From: Escherichia phage vB_EcoM_ECO78
Sequence record: PP526941.1
Direction: 5' to 3' (one strand)
Length of the DNA: 64,000 bases
The notes below the pieces were generated by a model. The model was not told the origin of the DNA, made no database searches, and was given only the letters and a program-made list of their open reading frames with translations. Numbering within the stretch: the stretch's first letter is position 1; every line of letters begins with the position of its first letter. The translations under genes were made by a program, and so were the position numbers. Below are positions 3,447-63,068 of this stretch, one piece after another.

Positions 3447-3476
3447 ATAATATCACAACTCTACCGTAAAGTAAAC
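3447..3476 (-). promoter_or_regulatory. early promoter (GTTTACT -35, TATTAT -10)
   Basis: Repeated early promoter pattern in intergenic gap. Confidence 0.45.
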
Positions 3477-5259: not shown

Positions 5260-5549
5260 TTATCCTCTTTTAACTCTTGACGATAATAACATATCATAGT
5301 TTTCTGGTCATGTACATATCGTTTTACATCATTAAGCCAAATACGAAATTCCTGAGAATCTTCAAATGGCATACCGACCCAAGCTTTACCATCGATAACT
5401 TTAACTTGCCATGATAGTTTAGCTTCGTCATATGACTTTATTTGTACAGGCCAATTGGGATGAACTGTTTCTTTCTTTACTTCTAGAGGCTTTGTCGAAC
5501 AACCAACTAGAAGACCAATAGATAATATTACTGCTGATAGTTTAATCAT
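5250..5549 (-). CDS. predicted lipoprotein (99 aa, lipobox LLVGC)
   Basis: N-terminal signal peptide with lipobox cysteine. Confidence 0.5.
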   Translation of the reverse strand: MIKLSAVILSIGLLVGCSTKPLEVKKETVHPNWPVQIKSYDEAKLSWQVKVIDGKAWVGMPFEDSQEFRIWLNDVKRYVHDQKTMICYYRQELKEDKCK

Positions 5550-6424: not shown

Positions 6425-6454
6425 ACTATAACACAACACGATGGACTTGTAAAC
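6425..6454 (-). promoter_or_regulatory. early promoter (GTTTACA -35, TATAGT -10)
   Basis: Pattern upstream of alc. Confidence 0.45.
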
Positions 6455-6457
6455 AGC

Positions 6458-8045
<1,588 letters not shown>

Positions 8046-9302: not shown

Positions 9303-11567
9303 TCATAATTTACAGGATGAACAATCTTCAGCTTTTGGAGTTTCTATTTCATAATCATCAGTACCAGAACCGTCACGGGTATTATGATAATAGAAATTTT
9401 TTCCGCCAAAATACCAAAAATACAAAAGGTCATCAATCATTATTGACATTGGAACCTTTCCTTTTGGAAAAATCTGCGGGTCATAATATGTATTTGCTGA
9501 AGCTGATTGACATACCCATTTCAGCATAATAGCTACCTGTGTAAGATAAGGTTTATTGCCTTTCTTAGCTAATTTCCACGTATAATCATAGAGGTCTATG
9601 TTATGTTCAATATTGGGCACGACTTGATTAAAGGAGCCCTCTTTTGATTCTTTAACAGAGACTGGTCCACGTGGAGGCTCGATACCGTTTGTACTGTTAG
9701 AAACTTGGGAAGATGACTCACATGGCATAAGTGCTGATAATGTGCTATTACGGATGCCAAAGAGCTTAAGGTCTTCCCGCAGCGACGACCAGTCACAAAC
9801 GTATTTTGGAGCTGCGATTTGGTCAATCTTTTTATTGTACCAGTCGATAGGTAATTCGCCTCGAGACCAACGAGTGTCTGAATAATATTCGCAAGGTCCT
9901 TTTTCTTTGGCGAGCTTAATGGATGCTTTAATGAGTCCATACTGTAATCTCTCAAATAGTTCATGTGTTAAATCGTTAGCATCTTCATAAGAAGCAAAGT
10001 TACTTGCCAGCCAAGCTGCATAGTTAGTAACACCTACACCGAGGTTACGACGCTTTTTAGCTTTTTCTGCTTCAGGAACTGGATATCCTTGGTAATCCAA
10101 AAGATTATCAAGAGCACGAACTTGAACTTCTGCCAATTCATTAATTTTATCTTGGTCTTGCCAATCGAAGTTATCCAACACAAACGCAGATAACGTACAC
10201 AATCCAATTTCGGCATCAGGGCTATTCACATCATTTGTTGGAATAGCAATTTCACAGCACAAGTTACTCTGACGAATAGGTGCCTTTTCACGAATAAACG
10301 GAGTGTAGTTATTCGTATTATCAATGAACTGTACATAAATCCTTGCTGTTCCTGAACGTTCAGTCATGAGCAATTCAAACAGTTCACGGGCTTTAATACG
10401 CTTTTTACGAATATTAGGGTCTTTTTCTGCTGCTTCGTATAATTCGCGGAAACGGTCTTGGTCTTTAAAATAAGAATAATAAAGCTCGCCACCCATTTCA
10501 TGCGGACTGAACAAAGTAATGTAATCGTTCTTTCCAAAACGTTCCATCATCAAATCATTCAGCTGAACACCATAATCCATATGACGAATGCGGTTTTCTT
10601 CTACGCCTTTGTTATTTTTCAAAACGAGAAGATTTTCAACTTCCAAATGCCAAATAGGATAATAAGCAGTAGCAGCGCCGCCACGAATTCCACCCTGTGA
10701 ACATGATTTAACTGCGGTCTGAAAATGTTTCCAAAAAGGAATAACACCAGTATGGCGTACTTCACCCATGCCAATCTTAGAACCTTCGGCACGAATCATA
10801 CCAACGTTAATACCAATTCCAGCACGTTTGGAGATATATTCAACAATCGAAGCGGAAGCCTTATTGATAGACTTCAATGAATCACCTGCCTCAATAACAA
10901 CGCATGAACTAAACTGCCGAGTTGGAGTACGACAACCAGCCATAATAGGAGTTGGCAATGAAATCTGTCGAGTAGATACCGCTTCATAAAAACGGATAAC
11001 ATGTTTTAATCTATCAACAGGTTCATCTTGATGCAATGCCATTCCAATAGCCATAAATGCAAACTGCGGAGTTTCATAAATTTGACCAGTGGTTTTATCT
11101 TTAACTAAATATTTTTCTTTTAATTGCATCGCCCCGGAATAAGTAAATTCCATATCCCGCTCGTGCTTAATTTTTGATTCTAAAAATGTAATTTCTTCTG
11201 CTGAATATTTTGACAATAATTCAGGGTCATATTTACCTTCATTTACACAATAAGAAATATGGTCAATAAATGAACGTGGTTCATACTGCCCGTAAACATG
11301 TTTACGAAGAGCAAACATTAAACAGCGTGCAGCTACATATTGATAATCAGGTTCTTCAACCGAAATAGAATTCGCAGCGGCCTTAATGACAATAGTCTGA
11401 ATATCATCAGTTGTCATTCCATCACGGAGATAAGATTTAATGTTTTCATATAATTCATAAGGATCTACTGATGTTCCCTCAGCTGCCCAAGATAAAACTT
11501 TAATAATTTTTTGTGGGTCAAAGCTCTGAGAAACACCACTACTTTTGATAACATTAATTAATTGCAT
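9303..11567 (-). CDS. nrdA: ribonucleotide reductase alpha subunit (754 aa)
   Basis: Class I RNR large subunit; T4 NrdA size. Confidence 0.95.
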   Translation of the reverse strand: MQLINVIKSSGVSQSFDPQKIIKVLSWAAEGTSVDPYELYENIKSYLRDGMTTDDIQTIVIKAAANSISVEEPDYQYVAARCLMFALRKHVYGQYEPRSFIDHISYCVNEGKYDPELLSKYSAEEITFLESKIKHERDMEFTYSGAMQLKEKYLVKDKTTGQIYETPQFAFMAIGMALHQDEPVDRLKHVIRFYEAVSTRQISLPTPIMAGCRTPTRQFSSCVVIEAGDSLKSINKASASIVEYISKRAGIGINVGMIRAEGSKIGMGEVRHTGVIPFWKHFQTAVKSCSQGGIRGGAATAYYPIWHLEVENLLVLKNNKGVEENRIRHMDYGVQLNDLMMERFGKNDYITLFSPHEMGGELYYSYFKDQDRFRELYEAAEKDPNIRKKRIKARELFELLMTERSGTARIYVQFIDNTNNYTPFIREKAPIRQSNLCCEIAIPTNDVNSPDAEIGLCTLSAFVLDNFDWQDQDKINELAEVQVRALDNLLDYQGYPVPEAEKAKKRRNLGVGVTNYAAWLASNFASYEDANDLTHELFERLQYGLIKASIKLAKEKGPCEYYSDTRWSRGELPIDWYNKKIDQIAAPKYVCDWSSLREDLKLFGIRNSTLSALMPCESSSQVSNSTNGIEPPRGPVSVKESKEGSFNQVVPNIEHNIDLYDYTWKLAKKGNKPYLTQVAIMLKWVCQSASANTYYDPQIFPKGKVPMSIMIDDLLYFWYFGGKNFYYHNTRDGSGTDDYEIETPKAEDCSSCKL

Positions 11568-14929: not shown

Positions 14930-15157
14930 TTACTGTTCAATAAATCCTGTGTAAAATTCTACATCTTCAGCATCCATACCGTCGCAGTATTCATTAACCA
15001 TAAACTGTTTAAGACGATCTAAAGGACCTTCAATAACAACTGAAACATTACAATTAGGATCATTTAGTGCGCTTATGATACTAAGTTCAGGATAACGATT
15101 ACGAATAATTTCTTCAATATATTCAAAATCAACAACATCAATATCAATTTTAGCCAT
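14930..15157 (-). CDS. hypothetical acidic protein (75 aa)
   Basis: ORF downstream of conserved promoter at 15201-15230. Confidence 0.5.
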
Positions 15158-15200
15158 ATTATTTTCCTCTTTAATTATCAGCAGTATTGCCGATAGTTGT

Positions 15201-15230
15201 ATAGTACCACAGTATGCTTTGGTTGTAAAC
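15201..15230 (-). promoter_or_regulatory. early promoter, member of near-identical extended repeat family
   Basis: About 70-nt block nearly identical to 32491-32560. Confidence 0.5.
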
Positions 15231-15249
15231 CGTTTTGTGAAAAATTTTT

Positions 15250-15280
15250 AAAATAAAAAAAGGGGACCTCTAGGGTCCCC
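15250..15280 (-). terminator. rho-independent terminator after gene 32
   Basis: GGGGACC...GGTCCCC stem (15262-15280) followed on minus strand by U-run. Confidence 0.6.
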
Positions 15281-32459: not shown

Positions 32460-32500
32460 TTTCTAATCTCCGTAATTCTGTATCAGTAGTTGATAGTTGT

Positions 32501-32530
32501 ATAGTACCACAGTATGCTTTGGTTGTAAAC
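32501..32530 (-). promoter_or_regulatory. early promoter for motA (extended repeat family)
   Basis: GTTTACA / TACTAT with 17-nt spacer; block shared with 15201-15260. Confidence 0.55.
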
Positions 32531-32550
32531 CATTTTGTGAAAAATTTTTA

Positions 32551-32580
32551 AAATAAAAAAGGGAGAGCCTCGGCTCTCCC
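32551..32580 (-). terminator. rho-independent terminator after gene 52 / small ORF
   Basis: GGGAGAGCC...GGCTCTCCC stem followed by U-run on minus transcript. Confidence 0.6.
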
Positions 32581-35594: not shown

Positions 35595-35622
35595 TTTCTG
35601 TTCCTCCGTAGTTGATAGGGTA

Positions 35623-35652
35623 ATAGTACCACGGAGGAACAGTCTTGTAAAC
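35623..35652 (-). promoter_or_regulatory. early promoter (GTTTACA -35, TACTAT -10)
   Basis: Repeated promoter pattern. Confidence 0.5.
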
Positions 35653-36109: not shown

Positions 36110-36139
36110 ATAGTACCACGGTCCTTGTGGTATGTAAAC
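36110..36139 (-). promoter_or_regulatory. early promoter (GTTTACA -35, TACTAT -10)
   Basis: Repeated promoter pattern. Confidence 0.5.
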
Positions 36140-40603: not shown

Positions 40604-40633
40604 ATTATACCACATCCTTGTGGTAAAGTAAAC
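40604..40633 (-). promoter_or_regulatory. early promoter (GTTTACT -35, TATAAT -10)
   Basis: Repeated promoter pattern overlapping gene 39 stop. Confidence 0.5.
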
Positions 40634-42450
40634 TATTGGCTCATCCATTCTTTACGAAGGTCAGCATTATCTCCCATGAGCATTTCAAAAAGCTCTTTCC
40701 AATTCTCAGGAAGTTTAACAACATCATATACTGGGTTTTGAATCATCTCACGATATTCAGATTTTTCCAAAGAGCCAAGTCCCTTAATATAACGGATGCT
40801 ATGTTTAGGTAGAGCATCTTTGGCACTCTCATATTCAGCGACTGTATAAAACCATTCTTGTTTTTTACCGACCTGAGCGATGATTACAGGAGTTTTGACG
40901 AAGCGAATTCTTCCTTGTTCAAACAGTTCTGGCCAATTACTAAAAAATCCGAGCAGAGAAGGATAAATGCTTCCTAGACCATCATGGTCGGCATCGGTCA
41001 TAATTGCAATATTATGATAATTCAAGTTTTCAGCCTTTTCACCAAGAACTAATCCGGTGATTGCGCAAATATCAAACAGTTCTTTATTTTTAAGCATATC
41101 AGCATATGACATACCCCAACTGTTGAGAACTTTACCACGCAATGGATAACCACCATGAAGTTCTTTATCACGAACATCAATAAGATATCCGATAGCAGAA
41201 TCACCCTCAGTCAAGAAAAGAGTAGTGTCAGCATCTTTACCACAAAGATTCGCTTTAATATGTTTATGAACCTTAGCTTTAGAAGCCTTTTTAGCTGCTT
41301 TAGTTTCTGCTGCCTTTTCTGCAGCCAATTTACGAGCCAAAGCAGCTTCAATAATTGGCATTAAAATTGCTTCATTATTTAAAATAGCACGTGAAATCTT
41401 TTTAGCATCAAGCTGAATATGACTACGAATTTCACCAAATGGAGAAGTCAAACGCTCTTTAGTCTGAGAATCAAATCGCATGTTTTTCATATCACGAACA
41501 AACATAACGATAGTCAAACATTCTTTAACACGTGCTTTAGTTACATCAATTTTGAACTTGCGTTTGATTTGTGGAATAAGGTCTTCACAAATATCATCCA
41601 TAACGCAGTCAATATGATGGCCACCATTCTTAGTATGAATGTTATTGACGTATGTTAATTGACGAAAACCATCCGGTGAACGACCAACCGCAATAGAACA
41701 ATTTTCTTGTTCTTGAACGATAGCATGCTCATCATATTGGCGTGCGTATTTCTTAAAATTACCCTGAACCTTTTTACCATTAAAGGTAAATTGAATATCA
41801 GGATAAACTACTGCAAGTGTCTGGAGACGATCTAGCGTAATGTCAAGATAAACTTGAGATAGCTCATTAGTTTCAAATGACATAAAATCAGGAATGAAAG
41901 TAACACGTGTTCCTTTCCATTTTCCAGGAATAGTTTCCCATGATTTATTTTCCATGCCATTTGAACAACGAACTACAATATTATTTTGACCATCGCCAGT
42001 TTCACCGACAAACATCACAGAAAAAATGTTAGTTAAACTAGAACCAACACCGTTCATACCGCCAGTGACGCGTTCTTTATCATCACCGAAGTTACCACCT
42101 GCTTTTGGAATAGTCCAGGCAGCAACAGGACCAGGAATTTCTTCACCGGTAGGTGTTTTAACCATCGCTTGTGGAATACCACGACCGTTATCTTCAACTG
42201 TTACTTGATTGTTTTTAATAGTAACATTAATTTTATTCGCGAATTTAAACTTAGTACGAATACCTTCATCTACTGAGTTATCGATAATTTCATCAATAAG
42301 CTTAACAAGACCAGGTACATACTGAACACTTTCCCATTTACCAAACAGAAAACGCTCATGCATTTCATTAGCGGAAGAGCCAATATACATGCCGCTACGC
42401 TTTTTGATATGTTCAATATCGCTCAGAATTTTAATTTCATTCTTAATCAT
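40633..42450 (-). CDS. 39: topoisomerase II large (ATPase, GyrB-like) subunit, contiguous 605 aa (T4 genes 39+60 equivalent)
   Basis: ATG at 42448-42450 (track start is GTG); C-terminus ...NADLRKEWMSQ continuous with no bypass gap. Confidence 0.92.
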   Translation of the reverse strand: MIKNEIKILSDIEHIKKRSGMYIGSSANEMHERFLFGKWESVQYVPGLVKLIDEIIDNSVDEGIRTKFKFANKINVTIKNNQVTVEDNGRGIPQAMVKTPTGEEIPGPVAAWTIPKAGGNFGDDKERVTGGMNGVGSSLTNIFSVMFVGETGDGQNNIVVRCSNGMENKSWETIPGKWKGTRVTFIPDFMSFETNELSQVYLDITLDRLQTLAVVYPDIQFTFNGKKVQGNFKKYARQYDEHAIVQEQENCSIAVGRSPDGFRQLTYVNNIHTKNGGHHIDCVMDDICEDLIPQIKRKFKIDVTKARVKECLTIVMFVRDMKNMRFDSQTKERLTSPFGEIRSHIQLDAKKISRAILNNEAILMPIIEAALARKLAAEKAAETKAAKKASKAKVHKHIKANLCGKDADTTLFLTEGDSAIGYLIDVRDKELHGGYPLRGKVLNSWGMSYADMLKNKELFDICAITGLVLGEKAENLNYHNIAIMTDADHDGLGSIYPSLLGFFSNWPELFEQGRIRFVKTPVIIAQVGKKQEWFYTVAEYESAKDALPKHSIRYIKGLGSLEKSEYREMIQNPVYDVVKLPENWKELFEMLMGDNADLRKEWMSQ

Positions 42451-42519
42451 CACTTATCCTCGTTTGGTTTCGGGAATATTATACTCCGGTAATCATAAAG
42501 CTAAAGGCCCGAAGGCCTT

Positions 42520-43337: not shown

Positions 43338-43757
43338 TTATTCCTTAAAGTGTGCTTTCAACATCTGATACAAGGACCATGCCTGTTCATTATTTTCAAT
43401 AGTAACTTTCATGATAGGAAATTCTGTGAAATCTTCTATTTGTTCTTGCTCTTCCTGCTCTTGTTCTTCAGCAGCCTGATATGGATTTTCCACTTCATTA
43501 AAGAACCCAGCTTCGTTAGTAGAGAGCCAGATAAAGTTTTCGTCAAGGATATCACCATGTGTTGCATATCCAACTGTGCCAGTAGATGTCACAATTTTAG
43601 TAGGACGACCAAGATGGTCAACATCTAAAATTTTAAAAGGATGCATACCTAAACGTCGCGCATAGATTCCATTATCAGTATGGTCTTTAATAAAATTTTC
43701 TTGAGCTTGTTTATTTTTAAATTGATACCATTTATTAACTTCAAATCTAATAGCCAT
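43338..43757 (-). CDS. hypothetical protein with acidic [10 protein letters not shown] tract (139 aa, T4 goF position)
   Basis: ORF; low-complexity acidic segment. Confidence 0.5.
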
Positions 43758-43972
43758 TAATAAATTTCCTTCCAGTAAGTTGTGCCATCTTCAGTAATTT
43801 CACGGAATACACCGTAAATAGGTTGTTTATCACCAACCTTTTCATACACATAAACCGAAGTCAAGTGAGTAAACTTAACGGTGTGTTCCTTTTGAACTAC
43901 TACCAAATCTGGATCGAATAATACATCTTCAAATTCGTCATTAGTGCAATTCTGAACATTTTTACGTTTCAT
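43757..43972 (-). CDS. hypothetical protein (71 aa, size and position of T4 cef)
   Basis: ORF with ATGA overlap to downstream gene. Confidence 0.5.
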
Positions 43973-44149
43973 TACAATTTCCTCATTAATTGAACATTGG
44001 AGCGATGCGTTTCAGAAGAGTGACAGCACCTTTGGCAAATTTTCCATTTTATTCTCCAAGTTGTTTTCTGTATCAGTAGTTGATATTGATATAGTACCAT
44101 AATCAACTACTGATGTATATAGTTTTATGAAAAAAAAAAAAATTAAACT

Positions 44150-44647
44150 TTATGCACAGCGGGCTTTGCTATAGTGTTTAATCCAACTTTCAGGAATGAC
44201 TTTGTATGTTCCTAAAAATACCGCGTTGTATAACTTAACACCATCTTCTACCCATTGATCGGTAATGTATGCACACATAGCACGAGTACGATGTTTTTGA
44301 ACAACCCCTTCCTCATCTTCGGTAAATTCGAATTCATAAGGAGCAATAAACTTAATAGCCTGACCGAGTTTCCACTTAAAGTCTACACCTACATGCGAAG
44401 TATCAATCGTTTCAATTCCTTTAGCAGGAACAGCTTTCAAAAACGCAGACTCAAGAAATTTCGCACGAACATAGCCAAACTGGGGTTTAGACTTTCCATC
44501 TTTAGGAATGATACGCACTTTTACTTCAGAATCTTCATATTTAACACCATGTTTAAGCTGAATGCTTACAATTTCAACCAATTTTCCTGCTGCTTTAGAA
44601 CGGGATTTATCAGATACACGAGCTAATTCACCAATATTAATAATCAT
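44150..44647 (-). CDS. hypothetical protein (165 aa, T4 motB position)
   Basis: ORF; C-terminal block shared with the upstream paralog. Confidence 0.5.
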   Translation of the reverse strand: MIINIGELARVSDKSRSKAAGKLVEIVSIQLKHGVKYEDSEVKVRIIPKDGKSKPQFGYVRAKFLESAFLKAVPAKGIETIDTSHVGVDFKWKLGQAIKFIAPYEFEFTEDEEGVVQKHRTRAMCAYITDQWVEDGVKLYNAVFLGTYKVIPESWIKHYSKARCA

Positions 44648-44691
44648 AGTTATCTCTCACTTGTTAAAAAGATTTTATACTCCACAGGACC

Positions 44692-44721
44692 ATTATACTC
44701 TGGTCCCAAGAGTTTGTAAAC
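44692..44721 (-). promoter_or_regulatory. early promoter (GTTTACA -35, TATAAT -10)
   Basis: Repeated promoter pattern. Confidence 0.5.
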
Positions 44722-44723
44722 TA

Positions 44724-45266
44724 TTAATTCAAAATAGCTACAACCGCACTACGGGGTACTACGCTAAAATCACCTGCATGAACAACGTTCAGAAGTTCAA
44801 CGCCATCTTCAATCCACTGGTCTGTTACCCATCCACAGACCGAAATAAATGGGGTCTTAATAGCTACAGCACGAGTTAGAAGGTCAGTAGGATCGCATTC
44901 TTGGAAGAGGATAAGCTCTGCTTCAAAGACTATAGTTTTAATTACTTCATCATTATCTAAGCGTTGTGCTCGAATCACATAAGCTTTATTCTTATCGTGC
45001 CAGTTACTTTTTGAAAAACTTTTAACCACAAACTCGCCTTCACCAAAAACACTAGTCAATGCTTTATAACCCAAACTTAGTTCAGTAGTTTTAATTTCAG
45101 TTTCAACCAGTTTGTAGATTTTGCCAATTTCAATGGTCCGAGCAGTCATAAAGGTTTCCTTAATTTCTAATGGTTTAACAAGAGTGCCGTGCATGCTTGC
45201 TATATCCATATCAAATATTTTATCTATAGGATTTGGGGTGTATTCAGGATTATAATTAAATTTCAT
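44724..45266 (-). CDS. hypothetical protein (180 aa), paralog of 44150..44647
   Basis: Shared motif TDQW(V/I)EDGV(K/E)L.N.V. Confidence 0.5.
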   Translation of the reverse strand: MKFNYNPEYTPNPIDKIFDMDIASMHGTLVKPLEIKETFMTARTIEIGKIYKLVETEIKTTELSLGYKALTSVFGEGEFVVKSFSKSNWHDKNKAYVIRAQRLDNDEVIKTIVFEAELILFQECDPTDLLTRAVAIKTPFISVCGWVTDQWIEDGVELLNVVHAGDFSVVPRSAVVAILN

Positions 45267-63038: not shown

Positions 63039-63068
63039 ATAGTACCATGGAAGAACAGTCTTGTAAAC
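63039..63068 (-). promoter_or_regulatory. early promoter (extended repeat family)
   Basis: GTTTACA / TACTAT; flanks shared with 15201, 32501, 36110 copies. Confidence 0.5.

Follow-up and report, generated by a model that had tools for sequence, protein, structure and literature searches.

The 177-bp gap between motB and cef in this T-even phage (genus Tequatrovirus) most likely houses an early promoter cassette of the PeSL (promoter-early stem-loop) type, whose hairpin would act on RNA that reads through from the upstream gene; we put the probability of this reading at roughly 0.75. The class itself is already described, in a very well-studied phage group. Unsigned positions below are those of the window, that is, the whole 64-kb stretch of DNA that was analyzed, unless another record is named; signed positions are relative to the predicted transcription start.

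The kilobase surrounding the element is 96-98% identical to many T4/T2/T6-like genomes by sequence comparison, and the genes flanking the element all lie on the minus strand. The upstream gene, motB (44150-44647, 165 aa), matches phrog_1671 (MotB-like, E 2e-75) and is annotated as motB in T4 and relatives, while the downstream gene, cef (43757-43972, 71 aa), matches phrog_1354 (E 4e-38) and is likewise annotated in relatives. In T4 (NC_000866), the hairpin element corresponds to positions 6582-6624. An early promoter precedes motB at 44692-44721 on the minus strand (GTTTACA, 17 bp, TATAAT; -10 at 44697; 31 bits), and a scan of 43700-44700 found no terminator-like site between it and the element. 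The motB promoter is a source of transcripts reading through into the element. Gene content near the gap differs between relatives.

Three further observations concern the identity of the window and its neighborhood. Gene 39 (topoisomerase large subunit; 40633-42453, minus strand) is a single 606-aa open reading frame here and is shorter and split in the T4 record; the window is therefore T2/T6-like and not T4 itself. At the element, the window is identical to the metagenome contig MAVG01000001.1 (L024). MotB and the product of the next upstream ORF (44724-45266, minus strand, 180 aa) both match phrog_1671 and have a common C-terminal segment, ITDQWVEDGVKLYNAV / VTDQWIEDGVELLNVV, which suggests that a MotB-like domain has been duplicated in tandem.

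A preliminary description of this DNA had singled out a perfect 13-bp inverted repeat with a 17-nt loop beside an A13 tract, and direct reading of the sequence together with a repeat finder bore this out. On the plus strand, ATCAGTAGTTGAT at 44072-44084 is followed after 17 nt by its exact reverse complement, ATCAACTACTGAT, at 44102-44114; the repeat lengthens imperfectly to 20-nt arms with 85% complementarity. It is the only perfect inverted repeat of at least 13 bp with a 3-30 nt loop in the window, for which a first-order Markov simulation gave 0.08 such repeats per window and any at all in 13 of 200 simulated windows. The A13 tract, also found as reported (44130-44142), is the sole homopolymer of at least 9 nt in the window. 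The loop carries GGTACTATA on the minus strand; the -10-like element that had been placed in it is present as the minus-strand hexamer TACTAT, and the direct repeat noted near it is TTGAT-A-TTGAT on the plus strand (44080-44090). The loop also contains a tandem ATCAAT/ATCAAC duplication. A search of the window located the complete palindrome at this promoter alone and the 5′ arm ATCAGTAGTTGAT once in sense orientation.

The same description held that this geometry fits no early promoter. Read on the minus strand, however, it does fit one, with TATACA, a 17-bp spacer, TGgTACTAT and an UP-like region. The motB stop codon TAA (44150-44152) stands 7 nt ahead of a T-run (T13 at 44130-44142, the A13 of the plus strand), which spans -58 to -46 as a distal A/T-rich UP-like region of hypervariable length. 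The proximal UP-like segment, CATAAAACTA (44120-44129, -45 to -36), reads TTTTTCACAAAAC in paralogous promoters and is invariant in 23 relatives. Within the -40 to -60 region, where an UP element is A/T-rich by definition (PMC2988021), the T13 run adjoins CATAAAAC at -45 to -38. The -35 hexamer TATACA (44114-44119) matches the T-even consensus TTTACW at five of six positions and is the weakest part of the promoter. The 17-bp spacer, TCAGTAGTTGATTATGG, includes the 5′ hairpin arm, ATCAGTAGTTGAT in sense RNA (44102-44114, -30 to -18), and the extended -10, TGg TACTAT (44091-44099; hexamer at 44091-44096), lies within the hairpin loop. ATCAAT separates the hexamer from the predicted +1, for which the position of the -10 suggests A44084. 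There the 3′ arm, ATCAACTACTGAT, begins (44072-44084, +1 to +13); the same 13-mer opens the motA leader. A GGAG Shine-Dalgarno sequence (44054-44057, +28 to +31) serves a downstream ORF with its ATG at +38, so placed that the promoter points toward this ORF and then toward cef. The palindrome exists because the spacer segment from -30 to -18 and the opening 13 bases of the transcript are reverse complements of each other.

We consider it quite probable that the element is a T4-type early sigma-70 promoter, and we infer its activity and start site from sequence comparisons of several kinds. A weight matrix trained on 15 other early-promoter-like sites in the window, with the studied site left out, ranked this site as the best non-training match among ~128,000 positions (26 bits, z 6.0). 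The -10/TGn contributed 14.1 bits, the UP segment 7.4 bits and the -35 none (0 bits), the last departing at two positions that are invariant in the GTTTAC of all 15 other promoters. A generic sigma-70 scan of 43700-44700 missed the site, which matches at 8 of 12 hexamer positions; against the T-even PeSL consensus TTTACW-N17-TAYWAT, 11 of 12 positions agree. Every base between -15 and +19 is shared with the motA early promoter, located elsewhere in the window, and the site closely resembles T4 promoters annotated with -35 and -10 signals in record X75802. In Mosigvirus phages, the homologue ahead of the same ORF reads TTTACA-17-TACTAT with TG and is detected by the generic scan; it has the same -10, leader and Shine-Dalgarno sequence, a consensus GTTTACA and a different spacer, and is without the hairpin.

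Other promoter classes fared poorly. No MotA box (TGCTT) occurs on the minus strand in 43700-44700, and a MotA-dependent middle promoter was rejected, there being no such box centered at -30; the middle promoters listed for T4 include none from position 5349 to position 10058 (PMC2988021). The late-promoter motif TATAAATA was not found near the element. In the literature accessible to us, we found neither an experimental 5′ end nor a named promoter at T4 ~6594, the minus-strand counterpart of A44084.

The local weight matrix also scored minus-strand sites with a -10 at 6430, 51008, 49673, 57317 and 56829 at 14-23 bits; none of the five belonged to the hand-picked set, and they are probably further early promoters. 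The motA early promoter (the regions concerned being 32460-32570 and 15150-15270, minus strand) has a canonical terminator ahead of it, and the promoter with a -10 at 15206 duplicates it almost exactly between about -60 and +3, its leader being another one. The 3′ arm of the studied site is a module common to the motA leader and, in part, to five other promoters. Taken as sequence identities, those among motA, 15206 and the studied site suggest that promoter cassettes have been copied or converted between loci.

Comparison with the same gap in related phages, which the preliminary description had proposed as a check, revealed strong conservation. Of ~500 full-length matches, 430 carry the 60-nt core (44066-44125) at 100% identity, against 90-98% for the surrounding kilobase. 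Base-by-base comparison of 23 sequences found three singleton changes between -45 and +13: an A to G in the 5′ arm that still pairs as G.U in sense RNA, a change in the -10 from TACTAT to TATTAT, toward consensus, and one at -4. The TG and the rest of the -10 are invariant, as is the spacer in 22 of the 23 relatives, its single change retaining pairing; common polymorphisms begin at +15. Within Tequatrovirus, the arms are almost invariant, giving no room for a covariation signal. The element pattern was recovered in two viral contigs in a scan of a viral collection and in nine in a metagenome scan.

The T-run behaves differently. Its length, also proposed for checking, does vary (5, 5, 6, 12, 13 and 13 among relatives): T4 and L022 have 5 T, most relatives 6, L021 has 12, and the window, L024 and T4_ev240 have 13. 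Where the run is long, it also takes over part of the preceding AAAA; such runs are found in independent assemblies and are therefore no sequencing artefact. There is a slim chance that the hypervariable run (5 to 13) is a contingency tract that tunes UP-element strength, or that it makes a weak terminator past motB. At the end of motB (44142-44182, minus strand), an AT-rich stem, AUUAAAC/GUUUAAU, followed by U13 has terminator-like geometry; its fold is no better than that of shuffles (z -0.9), and T4 has only U5.

Folded as RNA, the 43-nt hairpin reaches -19.4 kcal/mol for the minus strand (z -6.1) and -16.4 kcal/mol for the plus strand (z -5.4); as DNA, it reaches -11.1 and -10.4 kcal/mol on the two strands. 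The sense fold comprises the 13-bp stem, with four G-C pairs, a 2x2 internal loop, a 5-bp inner helix and a 3-nt loop. In the inner helix, 44095-44099 pairs with 44087-44091 in sense RNA only, with one G.U; the antisense RNA reaches only -16.4 kcal/mol because this helix requires the G.U pair. Since the arms occupy -30 to -18 and +1 to +13, only RNA reading through from motB contains both. The leader initiated at the promoter itself is without the 5′ arm, and folding of its first 65 nt predicts no structure (-6.0 kcal/mol, z +0.5). Given a promoter, shuffles put the 13-bp complementarity between spacer and transcript start at p ~3e-4 or less.

Beyond the stem, the sense strand reads ACAGAAAAC and the antisense strand GUAUAUAG. 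That it is not a canonical terminator, as the preliminary description maintained, agrees with a scan of 43700-44700 that found no terminator-like site on either strand. An intrinsic terminator was rejected: no U-tract directly follows the stem, G+C is low, the loop is 17 nt and the terminator scan was negative. The likeness to one lies in the intergenic setting of a stable RNA hairpin past a stop codon; what differs is the stem, of low G+C, without a U-tract on either strand, and its 17-nt loop (or internal loop plus 5-bp helix). The 3′ arm ends at 44072, and the GGAG at 44057-44054 lies outside the 13-bp helix. An outer helix, UUUUUCA:UGGAGAA, is present in every minimum-free-energy fold examined; the centroid keeps it for the window and REP4 and lacks it for T4 and PYps14T. 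Masking of the Shine-Dalgarno sequence by the T-run was rejected as non-robust, centroid support differing between phages. No Rfam 15 family matched 43700-44700 on either strand at E up to 1.

Promoter-straddling hairpins recur elsewhere. For five of the 17 early promoters in the window, spacer and transcript are complementary beyond what shuffles give (p<0.05; Fisher 3e-4, or 0.008 with the studied site left out). Besides the studied site, the promoter with a -10 at 35628 pairs over 12-13 bp across its Shine-Dalgarno GGAGG, those with a -10 at 557 and 166 over 8-9 bp, that at 3452 over 7-9 bp, and that at 63044 over 9 bp with G.U. The first of these (35598-35642, minus strand) is a promoter-straddling palindrome in its own right, CTGTTCCTCCGTG / TACGGAGGAACAG, with 12-13 bp perfect pairing and -24.3 kcal/mol. 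The 3′ arm doubles as the Shine-Dalgarno sequence (GGAGG) for a small membrane ORF, and from its layout the palindrome looks like a device for early-promoter-specific unmasking of a translation start. The T4 copy of this promoter type, annotated as a promoter in X75802, retains the helix through two G.U pairs.

The architecture also recurs across genera. For the promoter following motB in seven other Tevenvirinae genera, we found a perfect 13-bp repeat in Mosigvirus HX01 (TTCTCCTCTGGTT/AACCAGAGGAGAA, covering the Shine-Dalgarno sequence), 9 bp (11 with G.U) in Dhakavirus VR5, 7 bp (12 with G.U) in the Klebsiella phage kv_tblp2, 8 bp in a Karamvirus, 6 bp in Moonvirus CF1, and 6 bp over the Shine-Dalgarno sequence in Roskildevirus FBB1 (CTCCTG/CAGGAG), which has a true terminator upstream as well. 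Jiaodavirus KP1079 has no pairing across the -10; a CCACA/TGTGG hairpin lies inside the spacer. The arm sequences are mutually unrelated across genera, and the combined Fisher p is 7e-6 with the window left out. For 24 promoter segments, the folds of the sense RNA are better than those of control segments (p 3e-4), and sense outdoes antisense by a wider margin than in controls (p 0.027). On these comparisons, the recurrence argues for selection of the stem as a structure, in sense RNA.

Related arrangements were seen at several sites. A hairpin wholly within the spacer (CCACA-AGGA-TGTGG or CCAC...GTGG), which takes in the TGG of the extended -10, occurs at the window promoters with a -10 at 40609 and 36115 and in Jiaodavirus KP1079. 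Gaprivervirus TH40 (L033, ~335-370) has, before cef or its neighbor, a hairpin ATAGGG/CCCTAT alone without promoter hexamers, and in Mosigvirus ESh27 (L006, 855-879) and Roskildevirus FBB1 (L032, ~285-310) a canonical G+C-rich terminator directly precedes the promoter; such arrangements are different solutions at the same position. Among the 17 window promoters, a trade-off between a straddling hairpin and a canonical upstream terminator was not significant (1/9 vs 3/8, Fisher p 0.29).

Immediately downstream, the ORF served by the Shine-Dalgarno sequence is an 11-codon remnant, MENLPKVLSLF* (44012-44047, minus strand), left by a frameshifting deletion in an 89-aa ORF of phrog_3720. This ORF (L002, 1787-2056) is intact in REP4 and many other relatives, T2-like phages among them. 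The deletion, of 208 nt and the same in T4, begins a few codons past the cassette ATG, and its ends fall in a short AAAAYTT repeat. With the phrog_3720 ORF reduced to a remnant, cef is therefore the first intact gene served here. In the Yersinia phage PYps14T (L008, 700-800), a further deletion, running between two Shine-Dalgarno regions, joins the same promoter and hairpin directly to cef through the hybrid start region GGAGAATGTAATG. The GGAG (44054-44057) with its A-rich stretch matches the motif at which the T4 endoribonuclease RegB cleaves early mRNAs (motif in PMC3014915), and the start region TTGGAGAATAAAATG recurs at the promoter with a -10 at 36115.

PeSLs were defined in RB49/phi1 by Arbiol et al. 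2010 as an AT-rich region holding the upstream stop, a sigma-70-like early promoter and a stable stem-loop, then a Shine-Dalgarno sequence and ATG (PMC2839356). The stem-loop lies mostly between the boxes or overlaps the -10, the cassettes are located at indel junctions, and a lacZ fusion showed one RB49 stem-loop, PeSL211/210, the only one for which attenuator activity is reported, to behave like a strong terminator (PMC2839356). Comeau et al. 2014 extended PeSLs to the PST/T4 pair with the consensus TTTACW-N17-TAYWAT and described degraded PeSLs that retain the stem-loop (PMC4122927). The studied element likewise stands between small early genes in a plastic region, with the upstream stop in an AT-rich stretch. 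Its stem-loop overlaps the -10 box, one of five described placements, a Shine-Dalgarno sequence and ATG follow, and indels between close relatives occur immediately downstream. At the sequence level, it has every feature by which a PeSL is recognized. It differs in its stem, which is AT-rich where those of RB49/phi1 are G/C-rich and is of unusual length and perfection, and in that its 3′ arm starts at the predicted +1; the stem-loops of the PST/T4 pair lie just upstream of the promoter according to the 2014 figure legend (PMC4122927).

Against T4 early promoters (motA and the ndd region of X75802), the likeness extends to the extended -10 TGGTACTAT, the 17-bp spacing, the upstream segment TTTTTCAyAAAAc and the initial transcribed sequence ATCAACTAC(TGATACAGAA). 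The differences lie in the -35 (ATATACA vs the otherwise invariant GTTTACA), in the spacer, whose place the complement of the transcript start has taken, and in the T-run of the UP-like region, expanded to 13. A second T4 group, genes e, soc, 49 and I-TevI, has hairpin-masked translation starts with a late promoter in the region of the 5′ arm (PMC3014915). In both, the nearby promoter's transcript is without the 5′ arm and only the longer read-through RNA folds, but the studied promoter is early and its 13-bp helix ends 14 nt before the Shine-Dalgarno sequence, leaving it unmasked. Membership in this group was rejected, the Shine-Dalgarno sequence being 14 nt beyond the stem. A Shine-Dalgarno sequence in the 3′ arm, as in the e/soc type, is found at the window promoters with a -10 at 35628, 557 and 63044 and in the HX01 and FBB1 orthologues.

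We propose that host sigma-70 RNA polymerase would bind the UP-like region (T13 plus CATAAAAC), the weak -35 TATACA and the strong extended -10 TGgTACTAT and, starting at A44084, transcribe the ORF remnant followed by cef and the genes farther along. RNA from this promoter would lack the 5′ arm and have an open leader, while RNA reading through from motB would carry both arms and fold into the 13+5 bp hairpin. As to the hairpin's effect, we infer that it most likely insulates the cassette from upstream transcription. It could attenuate read-through or make it pause, or else mark or protect motB RNA at its 3′ end. Counting against this explanation are the poor -35 and the failure of the generic scan to detect the site, a stem with only four G-C pairs and no U-tract, a Shine-Dalgarno sequence that the hairpin leaves uncovered, the non-significant trade-off with upstream terminators, and a Mosigvirus homologue that works with another spacer and no hairpin. 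The arms could also be conserved for promoter reasons or through gene conversion with paralogues.

An alternative that we regard as unlikely is that the promoter is real and the palindrome a functionless by-product of recombination between paralogous cassettes or of a template switch (quasi-palindrome correction), retained only since both arms fall in constrained promoter parts. The sharing of the 3′ arm with the motA leader and, partly, five other promoters, the tandem ATCAAT/ATCAAC duplication in the loop and the hairpin-free Mosigvirus homologue would all suit such an origin, and with 0.08 expected, meeting one 13-bp repeat in 64 kb would be only moderately surprising. However, complementarity between spacer and start is improbable once a promoter is given (p ~3e-4 or less), different repeats recur at the same place across seven genera (p 7e-6), and the spacer, whose individual bases sigma-70 does not read, is invariant in 22 of 23 relatives, with the one change keeping the pairing.

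More doubtful still is the view that the promoter is decayed and inactive, and that the RNA hairpin in the motB-cef co-transcript is a processing site (for example, for RNase III, with ~18 paired positions and an internal loop) or a barrier to 3′ exonucleases. A -35 worth 0 bits, with two changes in the otherwise invariant GTTTAC, invites this view, as do the greater stability of the hairpin in sense RNA with its sense-only G.U pairs, the hairpin standing alone before cef in Gaprivervirus TH40, and the stem-loop-retaining degraded PeSLs described by Comeau et al. (PMC4122927). Yet a TGn, a good -10 and an UP-like region can offset a weak -35 (PMC2988021), and the -10 and TG are invariant save for the one change toward consensus (TACTAT to TATTAT). 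The site is also still the top non-training match of the weight matrix, and no Rfam family matched.

There is a slim chance that the palindrome and the ATCAACTAC motif at +1 are read as DNA by a phage or host protein that shuts off early promoters; if so, the studied promoter would carry two inverted half-sites around its -10. The narrower proposal, that the palindrome is an operator on whose two 13-bp half-sites a dimeric DNA-binding protein occludes the promoter, is a shade less credible again. The symmetry about the -10 is perfect, with half-site centers 30 bp apart, or about three helical turns, several early promoters carry the half-site ATCAACTAC at +1, and early-promoter shut-off is described as not completely understood (PMC3014915). 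But the full palindrome is unique to this promoter, the arms of orthologous promoters are unrelated, which fits structure better than a shared protein site, and variants and paralogues keep pairing via G.U, which is relevant only in sense RNA. The reviews consulted report no sequence-specific repressor of T4 early promoters (PMC2988021, PMC3014915).

A 17-nt loop disfavors cruciform extrusion. Least probable of all is an origin-like or cruciform DNA element, the former raised in the preliminary description, or a terminator of plus-strand (antisense or late) transcription: a DNA hairpin of about -11 kcal/mol forms on either strand and the plus-strand hairpin is followed 9 nt later by UUUU, but neither strand has a terminator-like site, neither plus-strand genes nor late promoter motifs lie nearby, and a replication origin was rejected, as none of the mapped T4 origins (oriA, near soc, oriC, oriE, oriF and oriG) coincides with the motB-cef gap (PMC3016281).

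On the PeSL reading, an odd palindrome and homopolymer in a well-studied phage group would be explained as parts of a standard T-even early promoter cassette. The recurrence of straddling hairpins at one position in eight genera, with unrelated arms and a sense-RNA bias, would provide comparative support for PeSL stem-loops acting on read-through RNA and not as sites in DNA. With the predicted start at the first base of the 3′ arm, the motB-cef element may also serve as a convenient test case for telling attenuation, message protection and start masking apart.
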